64,000 bases of DNA from a virus (UHGV-0039337); one strand, 5' to 3'; positions 7,425-49,415 are shown, counted from the stretch's first letter. Numbers and translations are program-made. Notes: generated from the letters alone by a model not told the origin.

Positions 7425-10400
7425 TTGCATACAACTAAATACGACATAATTAATTCTATTGATGCTGACTTAGGAATGCTAGGTTCTGACGGCACACATT
7501 TATGGAATAGTAATTCTTCAACAATACATATAGGTAATATGGTAAGTTATACTAGCTGTACTTTAATTGCTTTGTTTAAAGGGCTTGATTCCGACAGATT
7601 ATTAGGAGGTCATGCTGCACTTACTGTAAGCATAGATGGAGGTTACGGATCTTTTATTCATAGTTTTATTATAGATCAATCAGATATAAATAATGGACAG
7701 AAATATGTGCAATGTGGTGTTTCTCCAACAAGTTCAGTATATGGTAAAGAATCATCATATAACTTATCAGTAGGAATTACGGTAGTAGATAAAAACGATA
7801 TAGTTGTTTGTGATTCTACAAGATCACTTAATTTTTCTGTTTTTTTTACTGTTCCAACTTATCCTGATCCAGAGCCTGAACCAAAACCACCAGCTAGAGA
7901 GAAACCTAAATATGATGTTAAATTTGGTACTTTATACATAAATAGCAAATCAATGCAACATAATAATTTTTCTAATGAATGTACTAGAGATGAAGGTACC
8001 ATGACTTTTAAAGATACAGTTAAGGGCAAAGAATGGGAATGGGTTAAAGTAGTAACAGATAAAAAAATCATATATGTATCTACAGTTTTTGCAAGAAGAA
8101 ATGTATCTATTGATGAAATAGCACAGGCTAATGACACTATTGTAACGATAGACAAAAATAAATATAAACTTAAAACATTAATAGAATATAATCAATTATG
8201 TTATATAATTAATGATATGATTGCAAATGAAAAAATAGACTTAGAGTATGATGCTGATACTTCAAAATATGATATACCACTTAAAAATATAGAAACGAAT
8301 AATAATTCATCAATTAATGAATATACCGTATGCTCTGTTAATAACCATTACCCATATATACATTATAATCATACTATAAAAGGAAAAGATAAAAATTATG
8401 ACACAGTCATTTTACCTATATTAGAGCCAATAAAAGATGAAGAAGAACCACCTAAAGGTATTGATCTTGGCGTACAAAATGCAGCATTTGGCGTACGTTA
8501 TTTAGCAAAAGATCCTGATAAAGAACAAACATTAACAGTAGTTGAAAAACTAAATGGAAATATAATACAAACAATAAATAATTTCGATAGAAGTCAGCCT
8601 GGTATGGTTAAAATAACAAACGAATTACTTAGACCATTACTGATTGGTTCTATAAATTATATAGAGATAGATGTTTCTGATGGTTTTGTTACAGTTAAAC
8701 AGATATTAACATTTACAAAAGGAAATACTCCACCAGTTGTTACTTGCTATTGCAGTGATGAATTAGGAGAATTAGAAGAAAGACCTGTTATAGAATATTC
8801 CGTTAATGATGTTGATGGAGATGCGGTAACAGTAGTAGAAGAAATAAATGATATACAAACAAGATCATTTACAGCTACATTAAATGAAAAATATACAGCA
8901 GAAATACCTAAAGAGTTTTGGGAAAAATGTGAATATAATAAAAACACATTAAAAATAACAGCTATAGACGCTCGTGAGGCAAAAGATGTTAAAGAAATAA
9001 ACTTTACAAAAGCTAAATTACGTACGGCTTATACTGTTTTTTATGCAGTAGATGGAGATTTAAGACGTGAAAAACTTTTTATATCTATTGATGGCAAAGA
9101 AGAAATGCGTAAATATACTTTTACTGATACTACTTATGACACTGGTATAAATTTTGATTTAAAAGATATATCTGAAGGAGTAGAAATAAAAGCATGGATG
9201 GTAGCTCATAATAATTATGCTACTGAAAAATATAAGAGTAGTAATATATTAACTTTTAAGAAAAGCCTATATGGTAAACCTAATCCTAAAGTTGTACTTA
9301 CTCAAAACCATAGTGAGTATGGCTATTTAAAATTAACATATGATCATGATGATTTAGAGTTTAAAGACAATAAATGGATATCAAAGGATCCTGACAGAGA
9401 ACCTAATGAATTTATAGGTAATGTAGAAATACATTGTTATATTGATGGAAAATATGAAAAACAATATCCTATTGAAAATAATATCATACACGGTGGAGAA
9501 TCTATAACTTATAAAATAAATTTCAATGAAATAAGTCCAGGTTCTCGTAGCCATAAAATACAATATTTAGTTATTATAACTGATATAGAATCAAATAAGA
9601 AAAATATCGATATTGAACCCGGTATGTTTAATGTTGATAATCCTGTGTTAGGTTTGCAAGCAATAGAAGGTTCTCACTATTATAATGATGAACCTCTTGA
9701 TCCTAATGTTAGTTATAGTAATAATAAGTATTCTAATAACGTGTTAGAATATGAATTTTCTCATATAGACTTCATCTGGGATGGAGGTAAAGATCCTGAT
9801 GGAGATAAATGTATATATAATGTGTATATAAAAACACCTGAATCACTTAACGAAACATTAAAAACTGTATCTATATCTAGCAGAACTGGACCACATGCCA
9901 TACAATATAATCGTAAATATAGAATAACAGAAATATACAATGAAAATAATGAAGTTATAGGTTCTAATGTAGAACGTTATGATGATAATAACACTTATAA
10001 ACATATACAAACTAATAAATATGTAGGTATACATATTGATTATTTAAAAGATAGTTTAGATAAGTTTTGGCCTGAAAATGAAAATTACACTATTTACGTA
10101 GAGGCAAGAGATGTTAGAACATGGGATAACAGCTATTATGGATTTGGTGGCGAAGCAGGTAAAGGTATTGAATATCATAGAAGAAAACATGCTTATCCTA
10201 ATGATGTACAGTTGACAATAATACCTAATTTGGTCGATGGATTAGGTGACGGAGAAAAAGGTAGAATTATTGTTTTATATGATCATTCAGAAATAACTGA
10301 TAAATCAGGTATAGTAGATATCTATGCTTATCAAGATAATCAATTAATATGTAAGGTTTATAGCGGAGAATTCTATCCAAAGAAAGAACAAACGATAACT

Positions 10401-30321: not shown

Positions 30322-30681
30322 ATGGCATTGTTTCCTACAGATAATATAAAAAAAGATGGTATACAACTAGGAGGTCCTGATACTCTATGTTATAAATGTG
30401 AACTAGAACGTAGAGCAATGGATCGTGATAGTGATATACCATATGGTAAATTACAATATAAAGAAGTATTTAAAATAAATCAAGGCGGATTAGATACTTG
30501 TTTATGTATGAGACATTTTAAAGAAATGTGTGCTACTTCTCATTATATGTTAATAGATACTAATGAATGTATGGCAGTACCTCTATCAGCAATAGAAGAA
30601 TCTGCACCTGAAATAGAAGAAACACCCGAAGCAACAGAAGAAAAACCTAAGAAAAAAGATAAAAAGAAGGAGGAGAAATAA
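30322..30681 (+). CDS. Hypothetical Cys-containing protein with an acidic/lysine-rich tail (119 aa).
   Basis: ORF with a GGAGGATGATATTTT RBS. Cys pattern CYKCE...CLCMRHFKEMC. Confidence 0.45.
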   Translation: MALFPTDNIKKDGIQLGGPDTLCYKCELERRAMDRDSDIPYGKLQYKEVFKINQGGLDTCLCMRHFKEMCATSHYMLIDTNECMAVPLSAIEESAPEIEETPEATEEKPKKKDKKKEEK

Positions 30682-30817
30682 TGAAGAGTATATTAATAAA
30701 AAAGATAAAAGATGAATTTGGTATAGGTACTATAAGTGGTAAAAAATTAGAACTATATAATTTTTATGATTTAATAGGATTTGTAACACGTATGAGAAAT
30801 GGAGAAGACATAAAGTA

Positions 30818-31021
30818 ATGGCAATAAAAGAATTGAAAGCTATGATAAATAGCAGAAAAGACAAAATAGAAGCTTTAAAAAAAGTTATGTGTACAGTTGA
30901 TAGACAACAAACTATTGATCAAATAATAATAGAAATGGAAATGATATCTCGTGAGATATGGACTATAGAAGAAGTTATAATGAAAATAAAATATTTACAA
31001 GAAACAAATATAAATGATTAA
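30818..31021 (+). CDS. Small hypothetical protein (67 aa).
   Basis: ORF only. Confidence 0.4.
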   Translation: MAIKELKAMINSRKDKIEALKKVMCTVDRQQTIDQIIIEMEMISREIWTIEEVIMKIKYLQETNIND

Positions 31022-31117
31022 CTGGAGGTGATTTTATTAACAGAGTAGCCAAACAACCAAATAGAGTTAGAGGAAATATAATACAATGTATTAATTTTCA
31101 AATGTGTCCACTTTGTT

Positions 31118-31327
31118 ATGGTCGGTTGTCGTAATTATGATTCAAGATTAGAAGAATGTAGAGAGTGCTTTGAAGACGGCATACGACCAGGAGAGAAACG
31201 TAACTACAATGTATGTAATACAGATTTACATGAATCATGGAAAGTTAATAGAATGATATGCAAAAATACTGTAGAAATAGATGAAAATATAAAAATAATA
31301 AATGAAAGAGAGGATATAAATGAATAA
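31118..31327 (+). CDS. Small Cys-containing hypothetical protein (69 aa).
   Basis: Cys pattern CRNYDSRLEECRECF...C. Confidence 0.4.
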   Translation: MVGCRNYDSRLEECRECFEDGIRPGEKRNYNVCNTDLHESWKVNRMICKNTVEIDENIKIINEREDINE

Positions 31328-31514
31328 TGAAATACAAGTTATGGATGTAGTTGAATCTCTTAAAGTTCAGATAGCTGAGTTATCTTATCAAGTAGCATAT
31401 AGAGACGGTATTATAAAAGCTAAAGATAAAAGAATAGAACAGCTAGAACAAGAATCAGAGTTTGCCAAAAGAAAAAAGGCAAGCGGAGTTATAACGAAAA
31501 CTGTGGAGGAGTAA
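31320..31514 (+). CDS. Small coiled-coil hypothetical protein (64 aa).
   Basis: ORF overlapping the previous stop. GGAGG precedes the next gene. Confidence 0.4.
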   Translation: MNNEIQVMDVVESLKVQIAELSYQVAYRDGIIKAKDKRIEQLEQESEFAKRKKASGVITKTVEE

Positions 31515-31520
31515 TATAAT

Positions 31521-32069
31521 ATGCAATTTGATAAGCCATATGGAGTTAAATGTATAGAACTTATATCTTCGCTAGCGAATAAAGATAATAAACATAGATT
31601 TATAGACATCCTTAATCCTAGTTTAAAGAAATTTATAAACTTATGTTTAAATCATGCAGAAACAGAAGTATCAGACTTTGCTTTACTTGCTTGCGAAATA
31701 TTATGTGATTTAGGAGTATCAAGAGGTATATTTACTTATAATAAATTTGAAGATAAATATGAACCTTCAGAAGCATTGCAAACTATGATAGCTGCTATGA
31801 TGTTACATGATACATATATAGATGAAAAACATTTAACTACTTCTTTATATAAAGCTCGTGAAGAATTCTGGCCTATAGGTAAAGACTCTGATAATTTTAA
31901 TGGGTCAGTAATGAATGATCAAATATTAGGCCAAATATTTCAGTGTATAGAAGGACAATACGGAGCATCTACTCCAGTAGAAGGTTCTATACCAATAGTA
32001 AGATCACCACAAGAAGACTTTGCTGATGCTATATATATTGCTAAATGTTTAAATCATTGGATGAGATAA
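31521..32069 (+). CDS. Hypothetical protein (182 aa).
   Basis: ORF followed by a terminator. Confidence 0.5.
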   Translation: MQFDKPYGVKCIELISSLANKDNKHRFIDILNPSLKKFINLCLNHAETEVSDFALLACEILCDLGVSRGIFTYNKFEDKYEPSEALQTMIAAMMLHDTYIDEKHLTTSLYKAREEFWPIGKDSDNFNGSVMNDQILGQIFQCIEGQYGASTPVEGSIPIVRSPQEDFADAIYIAKCLNHWMR

Positions 32070-35438: not shown

Positions 35439-37139
35439 GTGATAAATATTAAAATAATAGAGCGTAAAGCTGATATAAATAAGGTAAATGAATTATCAAA
35501 TAAATATAATATATCAAAAGATATAGTTAGTTTTCTATTAGGGCGTAATGTTCCTGATAATATAATTCCATTACTTGTAGCTAAAAATGAGATAGATTTA
35601 TTACCATATGATTCATTGACTAATGTAAAAGAAGCAGCAAGTATTATTGCTAAACATATAGAGAATGATTCCAATATATTTATATACGGAGATTATGACG
35701 CAGATGGAGTAAGTGCAACTTATATCATGTATCAAGCTTTAGTGGAACTAATAGAAGCTAACCTACAATACAATAGTAGCGTATATTATCATTTACCTAA
35801 TAGAAGTGAAGGATATGGACTTAATATAGATTGGTGTAAAGCTATTCCTACTAATAACTCATTAGTTATAACAGTTGATAATGGAATAACAAAAAGAGAA
35901 GAAGTTGAATATTTAAAAACTAACAATATAGAAGTGTTAATAACTGATCATCATAAACCACAAAAAGGTATGATACCAGACTGTACAATAGTAGATGCTC
36001 ATCTATATGATACAGATAATATAAATTCTTGTGGATTATGTGGCGCTGCAGTAGCATTTAAAATTATAGCTCAATTATATAAAAACTATGGATACGACTA
36101 TTCTTATATAAAAAAATATGTAGCACATGTAGGTATAGCTACTATAACAGATGTAATGCCTTTTACAGAAGAGAATGTAATATTTATTAGTAATGCTTTA
36201 AAATATATAAATGATTATCCTTATAGTAATGAAGAATACGCTCCAGTAACAGAATCTATATATTATTATGCTGAATCAAATAAAGGTAGTAAAGTTACTC
36301 CAAAAGACATAGCTTTTGGATTTGGTCCTCAAATAAATAGTTGTGGTAGAATGGGAGATATTCAAGTAGCTATGGATTTTATGTTAGCTACAGATGAAGA
36401 AGAACTATCAAATGTATTTAAAACAATGTGTCGACTTAATGACGACAGGAAAAATAAAACTAGCTTAAATATGGTTACTATACAACCTCCAAAGCTAACT
36501 GATTTAGCATTAATAATAAAACTTAATAATATAGAAGGTATAGCAGGATCTATAGCAAGTAATTTGTGCGAACAATACAATATGCCAGTAATAGTATTTA
36601 ATAACGAAGATGAAATATTATCCGGTAGTGCAAGATGTCCTGAATGTTATGATATGCAATGGTTATTGAATAATACAGATCATGTACTAACATTTGGTGG
36701 ACATACTAGTGCCGCAGGATTAAGCATAAAAGCTAAAGACTTTAAAATATTTAAAGACTCTTTTAATAAAGCAGTATCTAAAGCTCCCGTATCCGTATCA
36801 ATAGATGATACAGTATATGTAGATAAGATATTAACATCGTCTGATTTAAATAAATATACTATAACTCAATATGATAGCGTATTATTCTTTAATGAATTTA
36901 CTAGACCTATATATGCTTTAGAAAATATATACATAAAAGGCTATCATTTATCTAAAAATAATCCTAACAATATATGCTTTCATATTAAAACGAAAACTAA
37001 AGAAGTTAAGGTATGGTGTTGGGGTTACAAAGATAAATATAAAGCATTAGGTGAACCAAGTTTAGTAAATATAATAGGTTCTCTTGAAATATTTAACGGT
37101 ATGTTTGTAATAAATATATTAGATATAGAAGCGGTTTAA
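35439..37139 (+). CDS. RecJ-like single-stranded-DNA exonuclease (DHH/DHHA1 phosphoesterase).
   Basis: IFIYGDYDADGVSA (motif I/II), ITVDNGI, and VLITDHHKP (DHH motif). 566 aa. Sits immediately upstream of DnaE, as in the SPbeta YorK/YorL arrangement. Confidence 0.75.
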   Translation: MINIKIIERKADINKVNELSNKYNISKDIVSFLLGRNVPDNIIPLLVAKNEIDLLPYDSLTNVKEAASIIAKHIENDSNIFIYGDYDADGVSATYIMYQALVELIEANLQYNSSVYYHLPNRSEGYGLNIDWCKAIPTNNSLVITVDNGITKREEVEYLKTNNIEVLITDHHKPQKGMIPDCTIVDAHLYDTDNINSCGLCGAAVAFKIIAQLYKNYGYDYSYIKKYVAHVGIATITDVMPFTEENVIFISNALKYINDYPYSNEEYAPVTESIYYYAESNKGSKVTPKDIAFGFGPQINSCGRMGDIQVAMDFMLATDEEELSNVFKTMCRLNDDRKNKTSLNMVTIQPPKLTDLALIIKLNNIEGIAGSIASNLCEQYNMPVIVFNNEDEILSGSARCPECYDMQWLLNNTDHVLTFGGHTSAAGLSIKAKDFKIFKDSFNKAVSKAPVSVSIDDTVYVDKILTSSDLNKYTITQYDSVLFFNEFTRPIYALENIYIKGYHLSKNNPNNICFHIKTKTKEVKVWCWGYKDKYKALGEPSLVNIIGSLEIFNGMFVINILDIEAV

Positions 37140-37160
37140 TCAACCGTTTCTTTTTTTATG
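37131..37160 (+). terminator. Weak terminator/attenuator between recJ-like and dnaE-like genes.
   Basis: GCGGTT-taatc-AACCGT followed by TTCTTTTTTTAT. Confidence 0.4.
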
Positions 37161-37197
37161 CTATAATATATACTAAATATAAAATGAAAGCTAGGGG

Positions 37198-40100
37198 ATG
37201 ATTAATATAAGTTTTATACATTGTCATGTTCATACAATTTATTCTATGCTCGACGGCTACTGTAAAATAGATGACTTAATAGAAAAAGCCAAAGAATATA
37301 ATATGTCTTCAATATGTATAACTGATCATGGTACACTTGCAGGTATTTATGAGTTTAATGATAAATGCAAAAAAGCAGGATTAAAACCTATATTAGGTAT
37401 TGAAGTATATCAAACTCATGACATATCAAAAATAATACTGCCAGTAGAAGAAAGAAAAAAGATAGCTTGGGATAAATATTTAGAAATAAACAATATAACA
37501 GATGAAAAAAGCCTAGGCAAGCTAACTAATAAGAAAAAAGCAGAACTAAGTTCAGAATATATATATGATACCAAAGGATATCATTTAATCTTAATAGCAA
37601 AAAACCAAACAGGTTGGAATAATCTCGTTAAGTTAAGTAGTAAAGCAAATGATATAGCAATGTTTAATGGTAAAGGGCATATAGATTATAATTTATTAAA
37701 GCAATATAGCGAAGGATTAATATGCACTACAGCATGTATAAGTTCTATGTTTAATCATGCATTATCTAACAATAATATGGATAAAGCTGTTAAGCATATA
37801 AAAATATTATTGGATATATTTCATGATGATTTATACATAGAGTTACAACCTTTAGAATGGAATAAGCAGGTTGAAATAAATAAAAAAGCTATTAAAATAG
37901 CTAAACAATATAATATTAAAACTATAGCAACTAGTGATGTACATTATACCAATTATGAAGATGATTATGAACACGATATATTATTATGTATAGGTACTGG
38001 CAAAACATATAACGACCCTAATAGAATGAAATACGATCATGAATATTGGTTTAGAAATGAAAACGAAATGATAGATGGTTTTAATAGAAGTAATTATACA
38101 AGTGAAGAGATGCAAGCTATTAAAACTGCTATAAATAATACAACATTATTAGCAGATACTGTAGAAGATAATATACAAGTAGGTAGCGATCATGAACTAT
38201 TACCAGAGGTAGATGTACCTGAAGGTTATACAACTAAATCATGGTTAAAGCGTCAATGCTGGACTAACTTATATAAATATCTAACAGACAATAACTTAAT
38301 GGATAAACGTTATATTTATGAGTCTAGATTAAAAGAAGAACTTGATGTAATAATAACTAAAGGTTTTGCTGGATATATGTTAATAGTTCAAGACATAATA
38401 AATATTGGTCAACAAGCTGGTTGTAGTTTTGGGCCTGGACGTGGTAGCGTTGGTGGTTGTCTTGTAGCCTTCTTGCTCGGCATAAGTAAAGGAATAGATC
38501 CTATTGAATATGGATTACTATTCTTTAGATTTTTAACTGTTTCTAGAACTGCAAATCCAGATATTGATAGCGACTGCAGTCAGGTTGATAGACAAAAACT
38601 ATTAAGAATAATAAATAATAAGTATCATAACACTAATGTTACTCAAGTAGGTACATTAACTACATTAGGAGTTAAAAATGGCGTTAAAGATGTCATGCGT
38701 GTATTGAATTATAGTTTTGCAGAATCAAATGCTGTATCTAAAAAATTAGATGAAATATATGCTGAACCAGATTTATCTTTTAAAAAGCTTGATAGTTTTG
38801 AATCTGAAGATCCAGAATTATATAAAAAATATAAAGAGTTAGAATCAGAATATCCTAACGTATTTAAGTTAGCACGTAAATTTAATGGATGTCCTAGAAA
38901 TATGGGAGTACATGCTGGAGGTGTAGGTATAACACCTACTCCAATAAATGATATATATCCTACTAGAAATATTGATGGTAAAAAAGTTACTGTATGGGAA
39001 AAAGATACAATAGAAAAAGCAGGAATCGTCAAAATAGATATGTTAGGATTAAAAACTATATCTGTAATAGAATTATGCTTAAAGTTTATAAAAAAGAATC
39101 ATGATATAGATATATCATTAAACGAACTTTATAATAATAAAGAAATACGTAATGATTCTAATGTATTTAATATGCTATCAGAAGGTAAAACTGATGGTGT
39201 ATTTCAATTTGAAAGTAACTTATTTAAAAATGCTTGTAAGAACGTTAAACCTACAGATATAAATGACTTAATAGCAATTACTGCATTTAATAGACCTGGC
39301 CCATTATCTGCCGGCTTCGATAAGAAATATGCTAATAGAAAAAATGGATTAGAACCTGTAAATTATCCTTTAGGTTGTGATGATATATTAGGTGATACAT
39401 ACGGATGTCTATTATATCAAGAACAATGTATGTTAATATCAAAAAAGGTAGCTGGCTTCGATGATAATCAGGCAGATACATATTTAAGAAAATCACTAGC
39501 CAAAAAGAAACGTGCTTTAATAGATCTTTGTAGACAGTGGTTTATATATGGAAAACCTGAACATGACGAATACGGATCACCTATAGAAGGTGGTATTAAT
39601 AGAGGATATGATGAACAAGAACTTAAAGACTTTTTCGATGAGTTAGAAGGGTACGCTAGTTACGTTTTTAATAAAAGTCATGCAGCGAGTTATAGTCTTC
39701 TAACAGTAATTAGTGCATGGTTAAAATATTATTATTCTGAAGAATTCTTTGCAGCTCTTCTTACTTATTCAGTTGATGAAAAAGCTGATTTATATAATGA
39801 TATATTAAGTAAACAATATGACATACATATAACTGTACCAGATATAAAGAACTTATCTGAAAATTATAATCCAACACAAGGTAAAATAGCATATGGAATA
39901 TCTAAAATAAAAGGAGTAGGTGCTACAGCAATATCTACTATATTAAATGCAGGACCATATGAAAGTGTAGAAGATTTTATAACTAAAGTAAATAAGTATG
40001 ATAAAGCACGTGGTAGTAAAAAAACTGTTAATAAAACAGCTATTATTGCTCTTATTAAAGCAGGAGCTTTTGACTCCTTGGGTGAAACTAATAGATTTAA

Positions 40101-40509
40101 ATTAATTAATCAAGCTTATAATGCACGTAAAGATAAAGACGAAAGACTTGATGAATCTACATGGTCAAAATCTTGTGCTCAAGCATTAGAAATAGAGGTA
40201 TTAAATACATCTATAACTTATCCATTAATATTTAATTCTGCTATGGATAAAGATATTATAACTTTAGAAAACTGTAGAATAATAAACGTTACTGAGAAAA
40301 AAGATAAAAATGGTAAACTTATGGCTTTTGTAAAAGTAAAAGTTAATGATATAGAACCAGTAGATGTTGTAGTATTTAGTAGTTTATATTTAAATAATTA
40401 TGATTTATTTGATGTTAGATATGGCGATGTTATAAATATAACAGGAGAAAAAGACGGAAAGAAATTAAAATTTAAGAAAGGAAGAAGAGAAAAGAAAGAA
40501 GATAATTAA
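37198..40509 (+). CDS. dnaE: DNA polymerase III alpha subunit (DnaE-type, PHP domain), full length (1103 aa).
   Basis: N-terminal PHP motif HCHVHTIYSMLDG...ITDHGTL. FGPGRGSVGGCLVAFLLGI...RFLTVSRTANPDIDSD. Catalytic-region MGVHAGGVGI and a C-terminal OB-like region. Confidence 0.85.
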   Translation: MINISFIHCHVHTIYSMLDGYCKIDDLIEKAKEYNMSSICITDHGTLAGIYEFNDKCKKAGLKPILGIEVYQTHDISKIILPVEERKKIAWDKYLEINNITDEKSLGKLTNKKKAELSSEYIYDTKGYHLILIAKNQTGWNNLVKLSSKANDIAMFNGKGHIDYNLLKQYSEGLICTTACISSMFNHALSNNNMDKAVKHIKILLDIFHDDLYIELQPLEWNKQVEINKKAIKIAKQYNIKTIATSDVHYTNYEDDYEHDILLCIGTGKTYNDPNRMKYDHEYWFRNENEMIDGFNRSNYTSEEMQAIKTAINNTTLLADTVEDNIQVGSDHELLPEVDVPEGYTTKSWLKRQCWTNLYKYLTDNNLMDKRYIYESRLKEELDVIITKGFAGYMLIVQDIINIGQQAGCSFGPGRGSVGGCLVAFLLGISKGIDPIEYGLLFFRFLTVSRTANPDIDSDCSQVDRQKLLRIINNKYHNTNVTQVGTLTTLGVKNGVKDVMRVLNYSFAESNAVSKKLDEIYAEPDLSFKKLDSFESEDPELYKKYKELESEYPNVFKLARKFNGCPRNMGVHAGGVGITPTPINDIYPTRNIDGKKVTVWEKDTIEKAGIVKIDMLGLKTISVIELCLKFIKKNHDIDISLNELYNNKEIRNDSNVFNMLSEGKTDGVFQFESNLFKNACKNVKPTDINDLIAITAFNRPGPLSAGFDKKYANRKNGLEPVNYPLGCDDILGDTYGCLLYQEQCMLISKKVAGFDDNQADTYLRKSLAKKKRALIDLCRQWFIYGKPEHDEYGSPIEGGINRGYDEQELKDFFDELEGYASYVFNKSHAASYSLLTVISAWLKYYYSEEFFAALLTYSVDEKADLYNDILSKQYDIHITVPDIKNLSENYNPTQGKIAYGISKIKGVGATAISTILNAGPYESVEDFITKVNKYDKARGSKKTVNKTAIIALIKAGAFDSLGETNRFKLINQAYNARKDKDERLDESTWSKSCAQALEIEVLNTSITYPLIFNSAMDKDIITLENCRIINVTEKKDKNGKLMAFVKVKVNDIEPVDVVVFSSLYLNNYDLFDVRYGDVINITGEKDGKKLKFKKGRREKKEDN

Positions 40510-40534
40510 AAGATAATTAAAAAAAAAGAAAAAG

Positions 40535-40564
40535 AAAAAATAACCCGGAAGGGTTATTTTTTTA
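40535..40564. terminator. Bidirectional rho-independent terminator between convergent genes.
   Basis: A-run, then TAACCC-ggaa-GGGTTA, then TTTTTTT. Confidence 0.75.
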
Positions 40565-40581
40565 TGGTTTTAAAAAAAGAA

Positions 40582-40887
40582 TTATAAAGTATATATTAAC
40601 TCAATAATAGATGCTTTAGTTTCATCATCATATTTAGATCTTTTTATCACTTCAACTAAATCTTCTACTGGACTTATTTGCCATAAGTTATCATCAGACA
40701 TTACACTATATGTATTATCTTCGAATAATGCTTGTAATGTATATATACCTAATTCCTTATTTGATTCTGTGCGTACTGGCTTTATATCTATTATCTTACA
40801 TAATCTACTTTTATTAAAATTTGCCTTATCTATAGAATTCTCTAATTGTCCTATATGCAAATAAACTTTATCATTAATATTTAGCAT
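40582..40887 (-). CDS. Hypothetical protein (101 aa).
   Basis: ORF with a GGTGGT SD-like sequence upstream. Confidence 0.45.
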   Translation of the reverse strand: MLNINDKVYLHIGQLENSIDKANFNKSRLCKIIDIKPVRTESNKELGIYTLQALFEDNTYSVMSDDNLWQISPVEDLVEVIKRSKYDDETKASIIELIYTL

Positions 40888-40946
40888 GGTTTTTTACCAC
40901 CTTTTTTAGTGCCTTTCTTTCCGTCTTTTTTCTTTCCGCAAGCCAT
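40881..40946 (-). CDS. Possible 21-aa Lys/Gly-rich upstream ORF (MACGKKKDGKKGTKKGGKKPC) whose stop overlaps the start of the next gene (ccATGcTAA).
   Basis: Read from the minus strand. GGTGGTGATATAA precedes the ATG. Could be spurious. Confidence 0.25.
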   Translation of the reverse strand: MACGKKKDGKKGTKKGGKKPC

Positions 40947-40951
40947 TTATA

Positions 40952-41485
40952 TCACCACCAATTTAGATATCTTTTCTTAATGGTCTACAAGGAATAGGCT
41001 ATGCCGACTATTCCCTATAGACAAACTGTACAGTTATTTATTGAGGTATCCTCGCTAACTCGAGGATACTATTCTATGGCATCTGCCGTTTCTTTTTACA
41101 GTCGGTAATGTGCCATCACAGTTTGAAAATAACTTAAAAGCTACCAAGTTTCTGGACTCAAACCATTACCTACTTTTCTTTGTATAGTGAGAAAAAGCTT
41201 AAAAACTCACATATATATCACTTTTAAAAAATATGTATTTCAAAAAAGTTGCCCGTGATATCATAATTCTAATGAGTTGAGATACATTTTGCTCTCTTAA
41301 GTATAGTTTAAAAATATCTACCACAATTCAATACGAATGAAAGGAGGGAGCCACCGATTGGCTCCCTAATAAATATGGAGGGAGATATTATAAATCAACT
41401 GCAATTAAACTTAATTGCTTCCTAGGTACAGTTACTGTTGTAACTAATTTACTAGGCTCATAAGGTCGTTGTAACCTCATTGATA
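40952..41485 (-). other. GC-enriched, ORF-free, highly structured region. Candidate long structured 5' leader or ncRNA transcribed leftward.
   Basis: Multiple perfect hairpins (GTATCCTCG-ctaact-CGAGGATAC; GGAATAG...CTATTCC; GGGAGCC-accgatt-GGCTCCC; AGTTAC-tgtt-GTAACT) plus long-range complementarity (GGTAATG...CATTACC; GACTGTA...TACAGT). A minus-strand sigmaA-like promoter candidate, TTGAAA-17-TGATATATA, lies at about 41215-41255. Confidence 0.35.
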
Positions 41486-41524
41486 ATAAAATTAGAAAGA
41501 GAAAATATAAGAGCTTTTTGCTCT
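41486..41524 (-). terminator. Rho-independent terminator for the leftward operon, downstream of the giant hydrolase gene.
   Basis: On the minus strand: AGAGC-aaaaa-GCTCT followed by UAUAUUUUCUCUUUCU. Confidence 0.6.
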
Positions 41525-41573
41525 CTACTAACTATTACTTAATAATATCTGTCTAATAGATTGTTTTGTAGAT

Positions 41574-44500
41574 TTATTTATATTTAGTCCAAAAACTTTG
41601 ACTAGTTATATTAACATCGTCTTTACAGAATTTAGTTACTTTATAAGTTGTTCCTCCATTTTTAACATAGTCTCTCCACAAAGTTTCACTATGAGCCATA
41701 TGCTTATAACAATATGTAACTGAAGCTGATACTCCTTTGCCAGAACCCCAAGATACTACGTATACGTCCATACGTCTATTACCATAATATACACTAGCTG
41801 GACAACAAATATCAAAATCAAATCCTGCATTACCAGTATCAGTTACAGTAAATATACAACTAGGATTTGCTGTTTGTCTACCTTTAAAGTATGGAATATA
41901 TACTTTAGTTCCATATGGAAGGTTATGAGAAGCTACCGTATTACATCTATTACTATGTAATCGATTACCTAAAGCATCGTTATATCCGCCTTCTCCTTCT
42001 TTGTATTGAGTACACTTAGATCCTTTAAGAGCCATTATGTATTTTACTCCATCTATTTCGCCTGCAGTTTCATCTATACCTGAACCGCCATTTTTAGAAG
42101 ATTTATCTGCGTTTATTAATGATTGTGGTCTTAGGAAATAACTATGTCCTGCATGTTTTCCTGTTACATAATAGTCTGCTTTTTCATATTTAATTCCATC
42201 ACGAGGACTTGAACTATGAGCTATCATTCCGTCTCCCATATAGATAATAGCATGTGTAGCTTTACATTCACTACCATTTGATAGATTATTTTTATCTATT
42301 AAACCTGGGCCATATGTCATTAATACATCTCCTGGTAATGCTTTAGCCATACCTTCTTTATCAGCGAACCATATCTTACCGCCTTTTTTAACTACTTCTT
42401 GTGCTAAAGTATTTCCCCCTGGATTTCCTTGTCCTGTGCTTCCGCTATAGAAATCAGAAAGGCCTGCTGCTTTATAACAACATGATACAAATGATGTACA
42501 GTCATAACCTATTTTACCATCAGAACATTTTTGTGGTTTATCATGGTCTACAGTTCTTGGGCTATTAGAATATTTAGCTTTTCCATCTTTGTATTCTTGT
42601 ACTATAGTTTTAGCCATTTCCGTAATTTTCTTTCTTATTGTTGCTCCGTTACCGTTTACTGAATCATCTATATCAGAGTTACCGTTATTATTACCATTGC
42701 CATTACCAGCACTATTAGCAGTTAATCCTATATTGCCTTTAATTCCATTATCGTATTCATAACCAGTTCTATTAAGATTAAAGTTTTCAAAGTAGAAATC
42801 TAATGAACTGTATTTATTTATTTGGACACTATCATCTTTTTCTCTTGTGTCTATCCATTCACCAGAAGCTATAATATCATATGTCTTTTTATCGATGCCC
42901 ATTTGTGTAGACTTTTCAGCTGAAGCTACGTTATCTTCTCCTGGGTCACCTTTTTGATTTTTATACTTAGCTGCTATTTTTTCTGTAGGATAGGCTTTAA
43001 TATCTGGACGTTGTAAATCAACAGATTCTTCTGTCCAATCCATCATAAATAAATAATCGCTAGGAAGTAGTTTATCTAATTCTTTAGCTCGTTCTTCTTT
43101 ATCAGTATATTTTTTCTTTATTTCTTTTTCTTTTAATTTTTTGTCAGCTGTTTGCCATTCATCTATCAAACTCTTTGGTTTTTTCTTTTCTTTTTTATTA
43201 GTATTAATATAATTATATCTTGAACTTCTTTTTTCTACATCATTTAAATTTTTGAAATCATCTAATGACATATAAGACATTTGCATATCATCAAGTATAG
43301 CTGAACCGTTAAATCCTGTTTCATCAAGTATATCATATATTGCACCTACGATAGGTTCATATCTAGTACATGTTAAACATTGATCCATGGTAACAGTTGC
43401 ACCGTCATGTACTCTATCGTCTCTTAAACATCTTATACATTTATATTTTCCCATTACACTTTGTCCACCATAATATACACAGTTTATATTAACACGTGAA
43501 GCCATACGTCCTAGATATCTAGTTACTGTTGATAATATGTTTTCTATACGTACTAATCTTTGTTCAGTCATCTTAGATTGATTAATAGCCATATCATTAA
43601 GCATTGCAAAATTCTTAGCCATAGGATGTGCTATCGGACATCCAGGATGATTACAACTATATACTCTATTTTCTATTTCATCTATTAAAACTTTAGGATA
43701 ATGATTCTCTAAGTCAGTTATCTTATCGTCATATGGATAAGGGTCCATATAGTTTACTGGTTTACCACTAGATTTTTTAGTTTTCTTATCTAGTAATTTA
43801 TAGTCATATGAGTATGATTTATCAAGTGCATCTTCAAGAGATATAGAAGCATCTTCTATTGTTGTTAATGGTATACTATTTTTGCTTAAAGAATCATAAG
43901 TACTAGTAGTATATTTAGGAGGTATAACTAAGTCTGGATATATAGGATCAACCTTACAGTCCATATTCTTATATAGTACACTTAATTCATCTACTGGTTT
44001 AACACAGTGATCTACAGAACCAGGACCTGTTTCTACTACTTTATAACGTATCATATTATCAGTAAAAGTATAAATCTTTTCAGTTAATACTTCTAAACGA
44101 GAATCTGAAGTTAATCCTACAGTTTTAACTTCTACCAAATCTTTATCATATGGTTCAAATGAGTTAGTATATATGTCTATATTAGCTGCTGTAGAATATG
44201 TCATTATTTCTTCATATTCTTTTTGTGTTATAATAGTTTTTATATCTGGTTGTGTAGCGTTAGCTTCAGTAGGTTTTGCTACTTTATATATCATTACACC
44301 ACCATTATCTATAGATGTAGTACCTAATCCAGATAATGTTATTCCTGATGTACTGCTACTATCTCCTATTGTATTATCTATGTTATTCTTATATATTTTT
44401 TCTATTGTTATATCATCTATATATAAATCAAACTTATTTTTGCTTCCTATGAATAGTTTGTAATTACTATCTTCTAATCCAGTAAATATACATCCTATAC

Positions 44501-47500
44501 GTGTCCATATAGTATTTGATATTCCTGATATATCTACTTCTTTTTCGTATTTAACTTTATTTGATTTATCTAATAGTTTTATTGATATATTTGTCTGTTT
44601 TAGTTTGTCTGGATCTAGTGGGCCACTATTTTCATCTTTTTGTGTGACTTGTTTTATATAAAATAATACTCTTAAATAACATTTGCTATCTTTTGCGTCA
44701 AAGTTTTGTGATATACCTGATATCTTATTGCTCGCATTTTTTATACGTGCAAATCCAGTTTTTCTATAAGGCCAATGTCCTTTAGTTCCCCATTCTGGGT
44801 TTGTTATACGTGAGAATTCTATAGAACCCATTTTTGACCACATTGATATATCGTCTTCTTCGAAATCAGCATTTTTTAATGATACTAAGTCAAGATTTCC
44901 TGACGAATTATTATTTTCTTCTTCGCCGTTATCCGGTTTTATTACTTCATCTCCAGGATCTTTTCCATTAGATACTTTAAAATCAGAGTTATCAAATGTA
45001 ACAGCATATGCTTTAACGTATCCAGATGTATCGTTTGTTTTTATTTTATATAAGCCTAGTTTTACATCTGTTCCTATAATAACTACTTTAGTTTGCTCAC
45101 TAAGGTCTTTATTTTGTTTTGCTAATTTAGTGTCTTTATAATAATCTGTATTTTCAAATTTAATCCAACATGTTTGTCCAACATAACTTTGAGATACTTC
45201 TCCATGATTTTTACCTATTACTACCACGTCTTCTTTTAATACATAACCAGTTTTCTTATTAAATTTACATTTATAATATGTGTTCTTTTCTCCGGTTATT
45301 TCTAATTCATCACCAACTGCTAATTTTGCTACTTTGCCTGCTTTTTCTTTTGCATCCTTTTTCATTTCTGTTCCTGATGTATTACCTACATAACAATACT
45401 GCTTATCGTTTTTAGTTTTCGGAGCTCTCATAGCAAATGTAGATGCATGATTTTCTTCTTTTGGTTCATCATGATGGTCACTATCTCCAACCATAAGTAT
45501 TTCAGTTACCAATGTAATATTAGTTGTAGATTCTATTATGCTTTTTATATTATTATAATATGTTATATAATTATTTAATGTTATTCCATCAGAGTTAACG
45601 ATAGAATCTTTTAAATATCCCTCTGAATCCATTAAGTCTTTAGATATATCTATAAAATAAAATCCATTTTTTATACAGTATGATTTTAAATTATTATTGT
45701 ATTTATCAAGAGCTTCATTAAAAGCATCTGCACTTTTATAATCTTGCTCTGAATATCTTTTTCCACAATGAGGTAATTTAGCTACATATACAGGAACGTT
45801 ATTATATAGCTCTTTTATTTTATTTAAAAATCTTACTGTATCATTAGATTCTAAGTTTTCTTTTAATCTGTTATATCCTAAATGTATATATACAAATGAG
45901 ACGTCTTTATTCATTCCTTCTAGTCTGTCTATATTCTTAGTAGGATTGTAATAATAAGAAGAATCTTTAGATATTGCAGCTTCACATATACTATATGTTT
46001 CACCTGTACTGCTTACAAAGTAACTTCCTTCTAATTCATTACTATCTCCTACTATTAGATCTCTCATTTCATATTCCCAGTTATCTCCTATAAACAATCC
46101 AGGATATTGAGTTGGATATATTTCTTCGGTATCGTTATCATCATCTATAGTAGCAATAGCATTAACAGCTCTTTTCCTTGCGGCAAAAGTTTTGACTGCT
46201 GCAGATTTTGCATCACTGTTAGCACTTATGTGACTATCAGTATTATTTTTCTTACCATTTGGAGATACATAATTTAATGGATTTACTGGTGTACCTTTTG
46301 TACCTGAAAAATCTTTATGTACTTCAAAATGTAAGTGAGGTCCGGTACCTATACCAGAGTTACCTACTTCTGCTATCTTATCGCCTTGTTTAACTGATTG
46401 CCCTACTGTTACTATATATTTATTAAGATGTTGATATAATGTTCCTATTCCGTTTCCGTGATCTATTACTACGTAATTACCACGTCCACCATTATATCCT
46501 GTTTTTGCTACAACTACTTTACCAGAATCAGCTGCTATAACTTTTGTACCTTTAGATGCTGGTATATCTAAGCCTCTATGAAATGTAGAAGCTCCAGGAG
46601 TTGGCGCTTTTCTTGGTCCAAAATTTGAAGATATTCTAGTTGATCCAGGTAATGGCCATATAAAATTACCTGAGCCTTTCTCATTTCCGTCACTGTTATT
46701 GTCGTTATTATTGTTGCTATTGTCATTATTACCATTGCCATTGTTTCCAGGTACTATTACTCCATTAGGAAGTGGAGCTGTTTCTATAAAGTTATTAGTA
46801 TTTTGGTTCGTTAATAGATTATTAGGTATATAAGTCGATGTAACTTTACCATACTTTTTATTTAACCAACTTACTTGTTTATCTACTTCTTTACAAAATG
46901 CTATCCATTTATCCTTGTCTAAATACAAGAATGGTGACGGCGCTCTATTAAGATCAAATTCACGCCATAATTGTTTACTAGTAAAGCCTTCATCATATAA
47001 TGCTTTAGCGCATTGTTCTATTAATTTTTTCTCTGTTTTAGGATAATCAACATTACCTGTTTTTTCTACTAAATCATATTCATCATAGAAGAATTCTCCT
47101 ATACTTAATGTGTATTTAGGATGTTGATTATTAAATAGATTGGCGTCTATATATGTATGCGTATTGTTATCAACACTCGCAAAACATATTTTCCCTTTAT
47201 CTACTTTATCCCATGTTATAACTTTTTTATCTGTAGTATTAGATACTGTTTTATTTGTATTTTTTGTGTTTACAAATGCAGCTCTAGTCAAAGCAAACAT
47301 AGTTGTTTCGACTTGTGGGAAAGGATTCTTTTTATATCCTCCTCCAGGTTCTACATAATCTAATGGATCTACATACTTACCATCTATCAGCATTCCAAAA
47401 TGTAAATGCATTAAAGGATTTGACACTGTAACACCTGTTGTACCTATACATTGACCTTTTGTTACAGTGTCTCCTTCTTTTACCTTTATCTCATCAAGTG

Positions 47501-49415
47501 AACCATATACGGTTTGTACTTTATTTCCGTGATCTATACGTACGTAGCCTTTTAATTTAGTATCCGTTAATACTTTTTTTACTACACCATCTGCGTAACA
47601 GAATGCTCCGCTCCCTGTATAATTTGCTATATCAATACCTGGATGGTAATTATATCCGAGCGTATCCGTTCTATATCCAAAGTATGATTGTATATATGTT
47701 TGCATAGGTGCAGGCCAACCAAATGGCTCACTTTGTTGTTGCACTGTTATTTCATCGTTTAAATATGTGCCGTAATCATTTGCATATGCTGATATTTGTT
47801 CTTGATCATAAGATCTATCAGCAAATGTGCTAAATGTTTTCGCTCTTAATCGTTTAGAACCTGATGAGTTAGAAAATTTATCGTACCATTTTTGTGCGTA
47901 TTTTCCTCTAATTCCTGTACCATCCGCACCATCTTCCGCTCTTTCAAAAACATGGCCAAATATTTTAGCTGCTTGTTTAGGATCGGTTAACTTCTTCCAT
48001 GAATCTAGCGTCATATTATATCTTGATTTTCTTAAATGATCAATATATGAATCTCCGCTCCATTCTATCCACATATATTGTATTTGAATATCTGGATCCG
48101 ACCATTCTTTACCAGCTTTTTTGGCGTAATTTTTTAAGGCATTTGCTCTATCGCCTAATAGTTGAAATAATCCTGTAGCTCCTAATCTATTTACATTTTT
48201 TGGATCGAAACTAGATTCTGTTTCTGCATTACCTACTATACCACAAGCTGCAGCTACACTACATCCTTGTGAGATACAATAATTATATATTTTGGTAGGT
48301 ATATCATTTCCGTCTATCTTGTTTATCCCTTCTGATTCTTTTCCTTCCTCCGGTGTTGATCCATCAGTAGAGTTATTGCCTCCATTATTAACTGTAACAT
48401 TTTCTCCGTTTATGATTACAGTTTGATTTAATGGATCTTTAGGTTTTACTTCAAAATCTGATAACGATGAACCTACTATATTACCACCTGTAGTTTGTCC
48501 ACTTGCAGGTTTTTTATTAAAATCTATCTTAGTATCTTTATCCACTTTATAATGAAAGTTTCTATCCCACCCTAGACTTTCAAAATACTTAGCCATACTG
48601 TCTGCAGTACAGTCATGGTAAGGTGGATACATATGCAAGGTTATACCTTTTATCTTATGCATATCTACCCAGTTGTCACTTACATTAGCATTAGGTAATG
48701 ATTCTTGTACAGTAGTAGTGTTATTATAAATTACTGTTATGGAATTGCCTGAACCACTTCCATAATTATTCCCTGAATTACCTTCAGATGGTGCATTGTT
48801 TCCTGAACCATCACCTGTATTTCCATTATCACCAGGTTCTGCTCCGTCTTCTGAACCTAGCTTTTTAAATTTGCTAGAATCTAAATTAAATTTTTTATCG
48901 CCTATTTTAAAACCACAAATAAAACCATCTGATGCATGTGATCTAGGTCTTATTCCTGAAGAGAATACTCCTCTAGGGTCATTTATTACTACATCGTTTC
49001 CGCTCATGGCTACTAATACTACATAGTGTCCTGCTGGTCCATAGCATGTTCTTAAACATCTTTCATGCCAGCTTGTACCAGGATCTTTTCGTCCATCTAA
49101 TACTATTGGATATCCTTGTTTAGCTAATTCACAGCATTTATCAAAACTAGTTATCTTTTCTACTGGTACATTAAATTGTTTACTGATATAAGGGAATAAT
49201 GTATTTTTATCTGCGCCACCACTTGGATTCCATCCATGGCCTTTACATTTTTGACATAGCATATTAGGCGCTACATCTTTACCTAATGCTTTTAGTACCA
49301 TAGATATGGCAGTAGTTGCGCAACCTGCATTCATAATATCCTCATCTATATTTTTATAAGCAACTTGTGACCAATAAGGGAAATCGTTGACTGTTTGTAC
49401 TGGTAGCTCTTGCAT
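41574..49415 (-). CDS. Giant (2613 aa) multi-domain peptidoglycan hydrolase with six lytic domains. Probably a virion-associated tail/ejection lysin.
   Basis: Domains: C39-like Cys peptidase (GCATTAISMVL...HYVVLVAM); SLT-like (GNAETESSFDP...GATGLFQL); M23 no.1 (YHPGIDI...RIDHGN...HLHFGM); M23 no.2 (FHRGLDI...VIDHGNG...HLHFEVH); possible GDSL/SGNH (LIVGDSN; LMVGDSD); NlpC/P60 (GYDCTSFV...THAIIYMGDG); 3D (TVTDTGNAGFDFDICC). Confidence 0.85.
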   Translation of the reverse strand: MQELPVQTVNDFPYWSQVAYKNIDEDIMNAGCATTAISMVLKALGKDVAPNMLCQKCKGHGWNPSGGADKNTLFPYISKQFNVPVEKITSFDKCCELAKQGYPIVLDGRKDPGTSWHERCLRTCYGPAGHYVVLVAMSGNDVVINDPRGVFSSGIRPRSHASDGFICGFKIGDKKFNLDSSKFKKLGSEDGAEPGDNGNTGDGSGNNAPSEGNSGNNYGSGSGNSITVIYNNTTTVQESLPNANVSDNWVDMHKIKGITLHMYPPYHDCTADSMAKYFESLGWDRNFHYKVDKDTKIDFNKKPASGQTTGGNIVGSSLSDFEVKPKDPLNQTVIINGENVTVNNGGNNSTDGSTPEEGKESEGINKIDGNDIPTKIYNYCISQGCSVAAACGIVGNAETESSFDPKNVNRLGATGLFQLLGDRANALKNYAKKAGKEWSDPDIQIQYMWIEWSGDSYIDHLRKSRYNMTLDSWKKLTDPKQAAKIFGHVFERAEDGADGTGIRGKYAQKWYDKFSNSSGSKRLRAKTFSTFADRSYDQEQISAYANDYGTYLNDEITVQQQSEPFGWPAPMQTYIQSYFGYRTDTLGYNYHPGIDIANYTGSGAFCYADGVVKKVLTDTKLKGYVRIDHGNKVQTVYGSLDEIKVKEGDTVTKGQCIGTTGVTVSNPLMHLHFGMLIDGKYVDPLDYVEPGGGYKKNPFPQVETTMFALTRAAFVNTKNTNKTVSNTTDKKVITWDKVDKGKICFASVDNNTHTYIDANLFNNQHPKYTLSIGEFFYDEYDLVEKTGNVDYPKTEKKLIEQCAKALYDEGFTSKQLWREFDLNRAPSPFLYLDKDKWIAFCKEVDKQVSWLNKKYGKVTSTYIPNNLLTNQNTNNFIETAPLPNGVIVPGNNGNGNNDNSNNNNDNNSDGNEKGSGNFIWPLPGSTRISSNFGPRKAPTPGASTFHRGLDIPASKGTKVIAADSGKVVVAKTGYNGGRGNYVVIDHGNGIGTLYQHLNKYIVTVGQSVKQGDKIAEVGNSGIGTGPHLHFEVHKDFSGTKGTPVNPLNYVSPNGKKNNTDSHISANSDAKSAAVKTFAARKRAVNAIATIDDDNDTEEIYPTQYPGLFIGDNWEYEMRDLIVGDSNELEGSYFVSSTGETYSICEAAISKDSSYYYNPTKNIDRLEGMNKDVSFVYIHLGYNRLKENLESNDTVRFLNKIKELYNNVPVYVAKLPHCGKRYSEQDYKSADAFNEALDKYNNNLKSYCIKNGFYFIDISKDLMDSEGYLKDSIVNSDGITLNNYITYYNNIKSIIESTTNITLVTEILMVGDSDHHDEPKEENHASTFAMRAPKTKNDKQYCYVGNTSGTEMKKDAKEKAGKVAKLAVGDELEITGEKNTYYKCKFNKKTGYVLKEDVVVIGKNHGEVSQSYVGQTCWIKFENTDYYKDTKLAKQNKDLSEQTKVVIIGTDVKLGLYKIKTNDTSGYVKAYAVTFDNSDFKVSNGKDPGDEVIKPDNGEEENNNSSGNLDLVSLKNADFEEDDISMWSKMGSIEFSRITNPEWGTKGHWPYRKTGFARIKNASNKISGISQNFDAKDSKCYLRVLFYIKQVTQKDENSGPLDPDKLKQTNISIKLLDKSNKVKYEKEVDISGISNTIWTRIGCIFTGLEDSNYKLFIGSKNKFDLYIDDITIEKIYKNNIDNTIGDSSSTSGITLSGLGTTSIDNGGVMIYKVAKPTEANATQPDIKTIITQKEYEEIMTYSTAANIDIYTNSFEPYDKDLVEVKTVGLTSDSRLEVLTEKIYTFTDNMIRYKVVETGPGSVDHCVKPVDELSVLYKNMDCKVDPIYPDLVIPPKYTTSTYDSLSKNSIPLTTIEDASISLEDALDKSYSYDYKLLDKKTKKSSGKPVNYMDPYPYDDKITDLENHYPKVLIDEIENRVYSCNHPGCPIAHPMAKNFAMLNDMAINQSKMTEQRLVRIENILSTVTRYLGRMASRVNINCVYYGGQSVMGKYKCIRCLRDDRVHDGATVTMDQCLTCTRYEPIVGAIYDILDETGFNGSAILDDMQMSYMSLDDFKNLNDVEKRSSRYNYINTNKKEKKKPKSLIDEWQTADKKLKEKEIKKKYTDKEERAKELDKLLPSDYLFMMDWTEESVDLQRPDIKAYPTEKIAAKYKNQKGDPGEDNVASAEKSTQMGIDKKTYDIIASGEWIDTREKDDSVQINKYSSLDFYFENFNLNRTGYEYDNGIKGNIGLTANSAGNGNGNNNGNSDIDDSVNGNGATIRKKITEMAKTIVQEYKDGKAKYSNSPRTVDHDKPQKCSDGKIGYDCTSFVSCCYKAAGLSDFYSGSTGQGNPGGNTLAQEVVKKGGKIWFADKEGMAKALPGDVLMTYGPGLIDKNNLSNGSECKATHAIIYMGDGMIAHSSSPRDGIKYEKADYYVTGKHAGHSYFLRPQSLINADKSSKNGGSGIDETAGEIDGVKYIMALKGSKCTQYKEGEGGYNDALGNRLHSNRCNTVASHNLPYGTKVYIPYFKGRQTANPSCIFTVTDTGNAGFDFDICCPASVYYGNRRMDVYVVSWGSGKGVSASVTYCYKHMAHSETLWRDYVKNGGTTYKVTKFCKDDVNITSQSFWTKYK

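Follow-up and report, generated by a model that had tools for sequence, protein, structure and literature searches.

A putative structured leader RNA ahead of a two-gene cassette in uncultivated gut jumbo phages

Structured 5' leaders can sequester a ribosome-binding site, as they do in riboswitch expression platforms and in protein-binding leaders. The late messenger RNAs of phages carry intercistronic hairpins that direct processing or confer stability, for example the RNase III sites of T7 and the 5' stabilisers of Bacillus phages. ROOL and GOLLD are large structured RNAs of phages and prophages of low-GC Gram-positive hosts. Here we describe a structured, largely gene-free island at positions 40888-41573 of a 64,000-nt stretch (the window) of the virus UHGV-0039337, an AT-rich phage (window mean GC 28.5%) known from gut and wastewater metagenomes, in which its contigs reach ~277 kb. 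The island lies within a leftward gene block that spans 63985 to 40582, with a gene for a 2613-aa protein on one side and a gene for a 101-aa protein on the other. It is, in our moderately confident judgement from sequence comparison, a leader or intercistronic RNA that acts in cis on the two final cistrons of the leftward block, read in the same sense as its flanking genes.

Long GC-rich intergenic regions (IGRs) of AT-rich bacterial genomes have been taken as candidate structured RNAs in the GC-IGR approach (PMC6429828, PMC8632094, PMC11109978). The island resembles these candidates in that it is long, raised in GC within an AT-rich genome, marked by compensatory changes, and placed upstream of a gene in the same sense. 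Unlike them, it matches no Rfam 15 motif, belongs to one jumbo-phage clade and varies in module content by lineage. As in a sequestering leader, the structure ends ~24 nt before a Shine-Dalgarno sequence, no terminator intervenes, and this site is predicted to be paired; the predicted partner, however, differs by lineage, and the pairing lacks compensatory support. The long near-perfect hairpins (15 bp in that at 40983-41022), situated between late-operon cistrons and past a predicted terminator, are reminiscent of those of T7 and the Bacillus phages, but the island greatly exceeds single processing sites in length and complexity. With ROOL and GOLLD it has in common that it is a large, phage-carried structured RNA. 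It differs from them in giving no covariance-model match up to E 10, in having no neighbouring tRNA genes, in being contiguous with a coding region, and in being built of separable hairpins.

Conservation of helices in the sense of the flanking genes

A first-pass annotation of the window had described the island as free of open reading frames (ORFs), enriched in GC and dense in hairpins. The longest ORFs inside it are 41, 35 and 30 aa. As 40881-40946 on the minus (-) strand is a conserved 21-codon gene, the non-coding part is 40947-41573, and nothing in it exceeds 41 aa. The GC content of the region is 32.5%, which is the 94th percentile among 686-nt windows, and the 300 nt from 40900 reach 36.7% (99th percentile); the enrichment is real but modest, since some coding stretches have up to 39%. 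The minimum free energy (MFE) of folding is -168.2 kcal/mol on the minus strand (z -4.5 to -5.0 versus shuffles) and -153.3 kcal/mol on the plus strand (z -3.4 to -3.5). Fifty control windows have z -1.0 +/- 1.4, and the raw MFE of the region is the lowest of all tested. One control window, 47301-47986 inside the 2613-aa gene, has z -5.7 (+) and -3.6 (-), which may reflect repetitive coding sequence. The density of hairpins is thus confirmed by folding better than shuffled sequence (z about -5 on the minus strand). The individual elements named before are also present: GGTAATG/CATTACC at 41104-41110 and 41164-41170 (plus-strand coordinates; in the 5'-3' order of the minus strand GGUAAUG comes before CAUUACC), GACTGTA/TACAGT, a 9-bp hairpin at 41046-41069, a GC-rich 7-bp hairpin at 41345-41367 and a terminator-like hairpin at 41509-41525. 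The sequence of the region is identical in seven of nine independent assemblies and is therefore not an assembly artefact.

Relatives were reached on ENA/Logan contigs through proteins homologous to the 101-aa protein or to the adjacent DnaE. They have the same gene order and represent ~8 distinct lineages, many of them close. GenBank phages gave neither a DNA match nor a match to the 101-aa protein, and searches of IMG/VR (protein and DNA pattern), JGI metagenomes and GTDB genomes (pattern) returned chance matches only, as shown by BLAST. The IGR is 686 nt long in the window and ~681-757 nt in L014-18 and L154, which together are called the window type below. It is ~745 nt in L152 and L155, where the insert is longer and different (L012 is of the same type but truncated at its 5' end), 386 nt in L019, and 221-224 nt in L010/L011 and L153. 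The structured module accounts for ~380 nt in the window and ~560 nt in the L152/L155 lineage, and it is missing in three relatives: both the variable module and the proximal hairpin are absent from L010/L011, and L153 lacks the variable module and also the small gene. Over the whole IGR the window and L014 are 79% identical. Close relatives differ in the region by indels of 1, 2, 4 and 5 nt, which excludes a reading frame, and by extra insertions of 27-42 nt between the modules.

The following comparisons suggest that pairing has been maintained during this divergence. In the alignment of the window type (8 distinct sequences) the consensus fold contains 163 pairs, with 99.2% of the cells paired. 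Eleven pairs are changed on both sides, compared with 1-3 for slid partners, and none of 500 shuffles reaches that number. By helix, six compensatory pairs are in the long hairpin at 41276-41324 (helix 11), three in the proximal hairpin and one in helix 12. The alignment of the L152 type, which holds three sequences only, has 136 pairs, 9 of them compensatory versus 0-2 in slid controls, and in a model-based alignment of 12 sequences 19 of 57 pairs are changed on both sides versus 1-5 in the controls. These controls are indicative and are not formal probabilities. A covariance model of 40975-41178 recovers L013 (1e-12), L155 (4e-10), L152 (1e-9), L019 (6e-8) and L012 (4e-7), always at the same locus; the 64-kb window contains no second copy, the next best match having E = 1.8. 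The consensus folding energy is lower for the minus than for the plus strand (-137.9 versus -123.9, and -111.2 versus -91.9), and single substitutions create G-U pairs that fit the minus strand. From these sequence comparisons we conclude that RNA structure on the sense strand is under selection. The suggestion that the island encodes a folded RNA has thus gained the support of covariation in relatives, and this favours the leftward, gene-sense strand.

The individual helices contribute unequally. In helix 11, 6 of 16 pairs are changed on both sides among window-type relatives, and many alignment cells are G-U pairs that would be mismatches on the plus strand. For 41276-41324, a model with two hairpins was given up in favour of one long hairpin, as in the consensus fold, because this explains the window's own sequence. 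The arms of helix 12 covary in L014 (U-A to C-G, A-U to G-U), with one compensatory pair and two wobble changes. The loop motif CUUUU(U)AAG(C/U)U of the hairpin at 41187-41210 recurs in hairpins of other lineages, and in the counterpart of this hairpin two compensatory pairs distinguish L152 from L155. The two short hairpins at 41046-41087 are common to the window, L013, L012, L152 and L155, the stems being kept while the loops vary. The proximal hairpin occurs in the window type, L013, L019 and L153; 9 of its 16 pairs are changed on both sides in the model alignment, and one pair reads G-U, A-U, G-C and A-C in four near relatives.

The P1 domain is near-invariant in window-type genomes, where all substitutions are in loops or are compatible with wobble pairing. 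Its internal loops are conserved and its flanks are far more variable. In the closing helix, 4 pairs are changed on both sides in L152 and L155 according to the model-based alignment. At 41155-41165 the window reads GGTTTGAGTCC, and L017, L018 and L154 have there GGTTCGAGTCC, the consensus loop of a tRNA T-arm; the consensus fold puts this T-loop-like site in a helix and an internal loop.

The small gene and the 5' end of the island

The first-pass annotation had noticed a 21-aa Lys-rich upstream ORF. The ORF is real and conserved, and is more than a conjectural leader peptide. It is intact in 12 of 12 copies (the window and 11 relatives), with 18-23 codons (MACGKK...GGKKPC), and missing only from L153. 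Every copy has the Shine-Dalgarno sequence and keeps the ATG(C/T)TAA overlap with the next gene. Differences at codon positions 1, 2 and 3 number 126:189:479, the indels are in frame, and differences between codon pairs are synonymous in 333 cases versus 206 that are non-synonymous. By its pattern of change the ORF is a conserved mini-protein gene, Cys-flanked and rich in Lys and Gly, and its recognition adds a gene where the gene callers behind the public contigs had called none. The overlap of its stop codon with the start codon of the 101-aa gene suggests that the two genes are translationally coupled. The Shine-Dalgarno sequence of the small gene is predicted to be mostly paired, with a probability of being unpaired of 0.10-0.16 versus 0.42 +/- 0.18 for 43 other genes; this modelled pairing lends weak support to sequestration. 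The 101-aa protein belongs to no Pfam family and has weak PHROG matches. Its AlphaFold model (pLDDT 71) is a small beta-barrel with helices, for which fold matches are weak (E about 0.1). Pfam, PHROG and this low-confidence model gave no usable lead to its function.

At the opposite end the island begins with a terminator-like hairpin, T1, placed at 41486-41524 by the first-pass annotation and found by the terminator scan of the minus strand at 41525-41509. T1 has the attributes of an intrinsic terminator, namely a stem-loop with GC pairs followed directly by the U tract UAUAUUUUCUCUUUCU. It is conserved across distant lineages and its stem changes are compensatory: AGAGC/GCUCU in the window, AGAGU/ACUCU in L019 and L152 (with which L010 is grouped), and GAGAAC/GUUCUC in L153. 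T1 is thus a predicted factor-independent terminator of the 2613-aa gene.

After T1 comes a block that stays unchanged between lineages. The sequence TTTCTCTTTCTAATTTTA has an exact match in every lineage examined, and in the window it occurs once versus 0.01 times expected. Lineages that lack insert A all carry the 37-nt sequence TTTCTCTTTCTAATTTTATTATAATATCTCCCTCCAT without change, and the window type keeps it as two halves. Its right half is the same in nearly all lineages (L017 has T for the leading TT), and TATAATATCTCCCTCCAT downstream is invariant in all. The block is invariant though the DnaE proteins of these lineages are only 68-72% identical (P0010, P0011, P0013), and the hairpin stems on both sides of it do change. 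A perfect TATAAT (41388-41393) is part of the right half, as is a CU-rich run that resembles the 16S rRNA 3' tail; two such runs, UCUCCCUCCAU and CUCCCUCCUUUC, are found when the block and the H2 tail are taken jointly. In the MFE structure of five of eight lineages, the CU-rich block is paired with the Shine-Dalgarno site. Three roles for the block were considered and given up. It is not a repeated phage promoter motif, because it is unique in the window. A mini-ORF on the plus strand (MEGDII...) that starts in the block has an unconserved C-terminus and no properly spaced ribosome-binding site. As a dedicated anti-Shine-Dalgarno partner the CU-rich block was dropped because its duplex energy of -9.9 compares with a mean of -9.7 +/- 4.1 for 43 other start regions.

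TTAT...TTAT flanks insert A, which is missing from L010, L019, L152, L153 and L155. A C-to-U change in L008 results in a G-U pair on the minus strand, and there is no second copy of insert A in the window. The stem of H2 covaries between GGGAGC/GCUCCC in L153 and GGGGAC/GUCCCC in L010. The 7-nt loop of H2 (41352-41358) reads AATCGGT in the window, whereas L003 (2529-2533) and L014-16 have the exact reverse complement, ACCGATT; L003 is otherwise identical to the window over the region. Hairpin-loop inversions occur in plastid non-coding DNA (PMC6824564). The H2 loop resembles these in that the two versions are exact reverse complements between otherwise identical genomes, but it differs in belonging to a phage, in its small size (loop of 7 nt, arms of only 7-9 bp), and in concerning one hairpin and not the whole island.

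Table 1. Features of the island and its borders, in the 5'-3' order of the minus strand
Feature	Position	Strand	Remarks
2613-aa gene stop codon	41574-41576	-	
T1, terminator-like hairpin GAGAGC-AAAAA-GCUCUU	41509-41525	-	terminator scan; ~50 nt past the 2613-aa gene stop
U-rich tract after T1	41483-41508	-	T-rich on sequence
Invariant block, left half TTTCTCTTTCTAATTTTATTAT (22 nt)	41483-41504	-	part of the U-rich tract
Insert A, 89 nt, three hairpins	41394-41482	-	window-type genomes only; splits the invariant block
Invariant block, right half TTATAATATCTCCCTCCAT	41375-41393	-	unique in the window
H2, GC-rich hairpin, 7-9 bp (41345-41367), with tail CCUCCUUUCA	41335-41367	-	terminator-like in the scan
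Helix 11, long imperfect hairpin	41276-41324	-	consensus fold
Helix 12, arms 41255-41261 and 41215-21	41212-41261	-	consensus fold; encloses the promoter candidate
Promoter candidate, TTGAAA and TGATATATA	41238-41243 and 41212-41220	-	inside helix 12
Hairpin GUGAG-(UUUUUAAGCUUUUU)-CUCAC	41187-41210	-	predicted fold
P1 domain, 75-nt irregular hairpin closed by GGUAAUG/CAUUACC	41100-41174	-	best-conserved segment of the module
Two short hairpins, GGC(A)..(U)GCC (41078-41087) and GUAUCCUCG..CGAGGAUAC (41046-41069)	41046-41087	-	
Proximal 15-bp hairpin, loop GGCAUA	40983-41022	-	ends ~24 nt before the Shine-Dalgarno sequence
Shine-Dalgarno sequence GGUGGUGA of the small gene	40952-40959	-	5 nt upstream of the small gene; conserved in all lineages
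Small gene, 21 codons, product MACGKKKDGKKGTKKGGKKPC	40881-40946	-	stop overlaps the 101-aa gene start (ATGCTAA)
101-aa gene, last of the leftward block	40582-40887	-	start overlaps the small gene stop

The leader model and its alternatives

By combining these observations, it is possible to outline how the island might work. Along the minus strand T1 is followed by the invariant block, H2, the variable module (41100-41324 and 40983-41087) and the Shine-Dalgarno sequence. The island is non-coding, its helices are conserved on the minus strand, and it is modular, single-copy, fixed at one locus and contiguous with the small gene. T1 and H2 would stop most of the transcription that arrives from the giant gene and thus uncouple the small cassette from it. 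Read-through transcripts, and those initiated at the TATAAT or at a weaker site downstream, would carry a chain of stable hairpins. This chain might then set the stability and processing of the two-gene message and the access of ribosomes to it, the Shine-Dalgarno sequence being in or next to paired RNA. The terminator scan finds no terminator-like site between the module and the Shine-Dalgarno sequence, which is why a leader, one of the candidates of the first-pass annotation, fits. The RNA would be a new, narrow family of a known kind, confined to one clade of uncultivated gut jumbo phages and without an Rfam model. Start sites, terminator efficiency and any switching or binding of factors are all predictions in this model.

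The start of transcription deserves separate consideration. The sigmaA-like promoter previously proposed in the island reads TTGAAA-17 nt-TGA-TATATA. Its hexamers are 20 nt apart (19 nt in L014), compared with the 16-18 nt of a sigmaA/sigma-70 promoter, the consensus promoter scan does not list it, and the pattern with one mismatch occurs 3 times in the window versus 2.95 expected, so that the proposal is not upheld. Given its near-invariance among window-type relatives, the sequence may still matter. As covarying helices extend upstream of and across the candidate, at least some transcripts would start further upstream, and L010, which has no room for a promoter between H2 and the Shine-Dalgarno sequence, points in the same direction. 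Such transcripts might arise by reading through T1 and H2 or start at the invariant TATAAT, for which the -35 match is only 3 of 6. On the plus strand, 101-22571 of the window encodes ten successive proteins of 393-1451 aa without a Pfam match at E <= 0.001. In view of these large proteins, the phage may use a polymerase of its own. If some of them are divergent phage RNA polymerase subunits, promoter predictions of the host type are unreliable here.

Several points weigh against the leader model. Among the genes of the window, the predicted sequestration of the Shine-Dalgarno sequence is no more extreme than about the 10th percentile, and pairing of the CU-rich block with this sequence is not stronger than with an average Shine-Dalgarno sequence. 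The sigmaA promoter that had been proposed is a poor one, both in the scan and in the chance-level frequency of its pattern, and the transcription start sites are all deduced from sequence. The module is missing from L010/L011 and L153 and is therefore not essential. The model does not account for the strict invariance of the 37-nt block. In addition, the 12-sequence alignment was fitted to the model and so leans towards structure, and with so few relatives, some of them close, significance is overstated by the shuffle controls.

The size of the module might instead indicate a stand-alone RNA that is processed out of the transcript and acts in trans as a scaffold or ribozyme, maybe with the basic peptide. 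The module is indeed large (a core of ~200 nt in the window and ~450-560 nt in L152, L155 and L012), the L152-type fold has its 136 predicted pairs with 9 compensatory ones, the 75-nt P1 is near-invariant in an IGR whose flanks vary (the 79% identity to L014), and a conserved Lys-rich peptide gene always comes next. No known family accounts for it either: Rfam 15, which covers riboswitches, ribozymes, introns, small RNAs, ROOL/GOLLD/OLE, pRNA and T-box, gave 0 matches over the whole window at gathering thresholds and only noise (E 0.2-10) in a lenient search of 40500-41700 and the corresponding regions of relatives. We nevertheless hold such an RNA to be fairly unlikely, as no terminator or other defined 3' end precedes the Shine-Dalgarno sequence, the linkers are variable, with insertions of 27-42 nt, so that a string of hairpins fits better than a compact fold, and the module is always at one locus and is missing in three relatives that keep the genes. 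It can be imagined further that the RNA, up to ~560 nt in L152/L155, represents a new class with a function of its own and with the peptide as its partner, which we judge unlikely. It would then be a ribonucleoprotein scaffold, a ribozyme or a regulator of host or phage transcription termination, and the 18-23-aa Cys-flanked poly-Lys/Gly peptide might bind it as short basic peptides recognise hairpins. A sensor of the riboswitch type, in which P1 binds a small ligand or a protein, appears improbable. The predicted toggle would oppose the hairpin at 41187-41210 to a pairing of UCACUAU (41184-41190) with the Shine-Dalgarno sequence. The consensus fold does pair UCACUAU with GUGGUGA, and two one-sided changes in L014 keep or improve the pairs; the conserved internal loops of P1 and the predicted pairing of the Shine-Dalgarno sequence are also in its favour. 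Yet Rfam gives no riboswitch match, even with E up to 10, no pair of the UCACUAU:GUGGUGA helix is changed on both sides, the L152-type leaders lack the same anti-Shine-Dalgarno segment and have a different predicted partner, and the downstream genes offer no metabolic clue. The compensatory changes of P1 show only once L152 and L155 are joined through the model-fitted alignment.

The presence or absence of the elements by lineage, the TTAT direct repeats around insert A and the extra insertions of relatives would also be expected if insert A and the module were scars of mobile elements or of a lost gene, their hairpins being incidental. This, too, is improbable: the compensatory changes point to selection on pairing, no second copy is present in the window, the core is more conserved than the flanks, and the indel lengths follow no frame and leave no ORF. 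The degraded gene remnant that the first-pass annotation had named as the outcome contrary to its proposal is thus not supported. Even less probable is an element acting at the DNA level, such as a replication origin, a packaging site or a recombination hotspot with hairpin or cruciform extrusion. Here the 37-nt block is invariant as DNA, the flip of the H2 loop is a DNA event, and the region is ~0.4-1 kb from the convergence of the gene blocks and the turn of the GC skew. The skew turns, however, at the change of coding strand near 40500 and not at the island, and one RNA strand is preferred by both the G-U pairs and the folding energy. The region has neither iterons nor repeated boxes, its direct repeats are limited to short matches in two copies, at chance level, and the motifs are unique in the window, so that the origin and packaging candidates of the first-pass annotation are not supported. 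Its exclusion of tRNAs and introns agrees with the present searches: ARAGORN finds no tRNA or tmRNA in the window or at the loci of six relatives, and no group I or group II intron model of Rfam matches, the flanks being complete, separate genes.

If the island is a leader that only stabilises or attenuates the message of the cassette, it is a useful annotation and no surprise. Uncultivated jumbo phages have hardly been explored for structured RNAs, and the island is one that has support from covariation and no Rfam family. Its fixed locus, where the structure has been gained, lost or remodelled between close lineages, offers a natural experiment on the evolution of long leaders.

Neighbouring genes and further observations

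The rightward genes of the window extend up to 40509, the last of them encoding the DnaE-type polymerase. A hairpin of 12-13 bp at 40534-40563, AT-rich with a GC core and flanked by T runs on both strands, is located exactly at the convergence of the rightward and leftward gene blocks and is probably a bidirectional terminator. Another stretch of ~0.84 kb, 30681-31521, has no ORF of at least 90 aa.

In some relatives a gene just before, or overlapping, the start of DnaE matches the Pfam family NUMOD3, solidly in L017 (2792-3508) and faintly in L018 (2945-3367) and L152 (439-1122). The match suggests a homing-endonuclease-like gene. The window has only a 58-nt gap at this position (37139-37198).

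The 2613-aa protein (41574-49415), the product of the giant tail/lysis gene, contains peptidase and lysozyme domains. In L014 the gene beside the island is called as 628 aa (7945-9831) and is followed by a gene for a 364-aa protein with only faint Pfam matches of the helix-turn-helix type. Despite the difference between 628 and 2613 aa, the final ~30 nt ahead of the stop codon are near-identical in L014 and the window.

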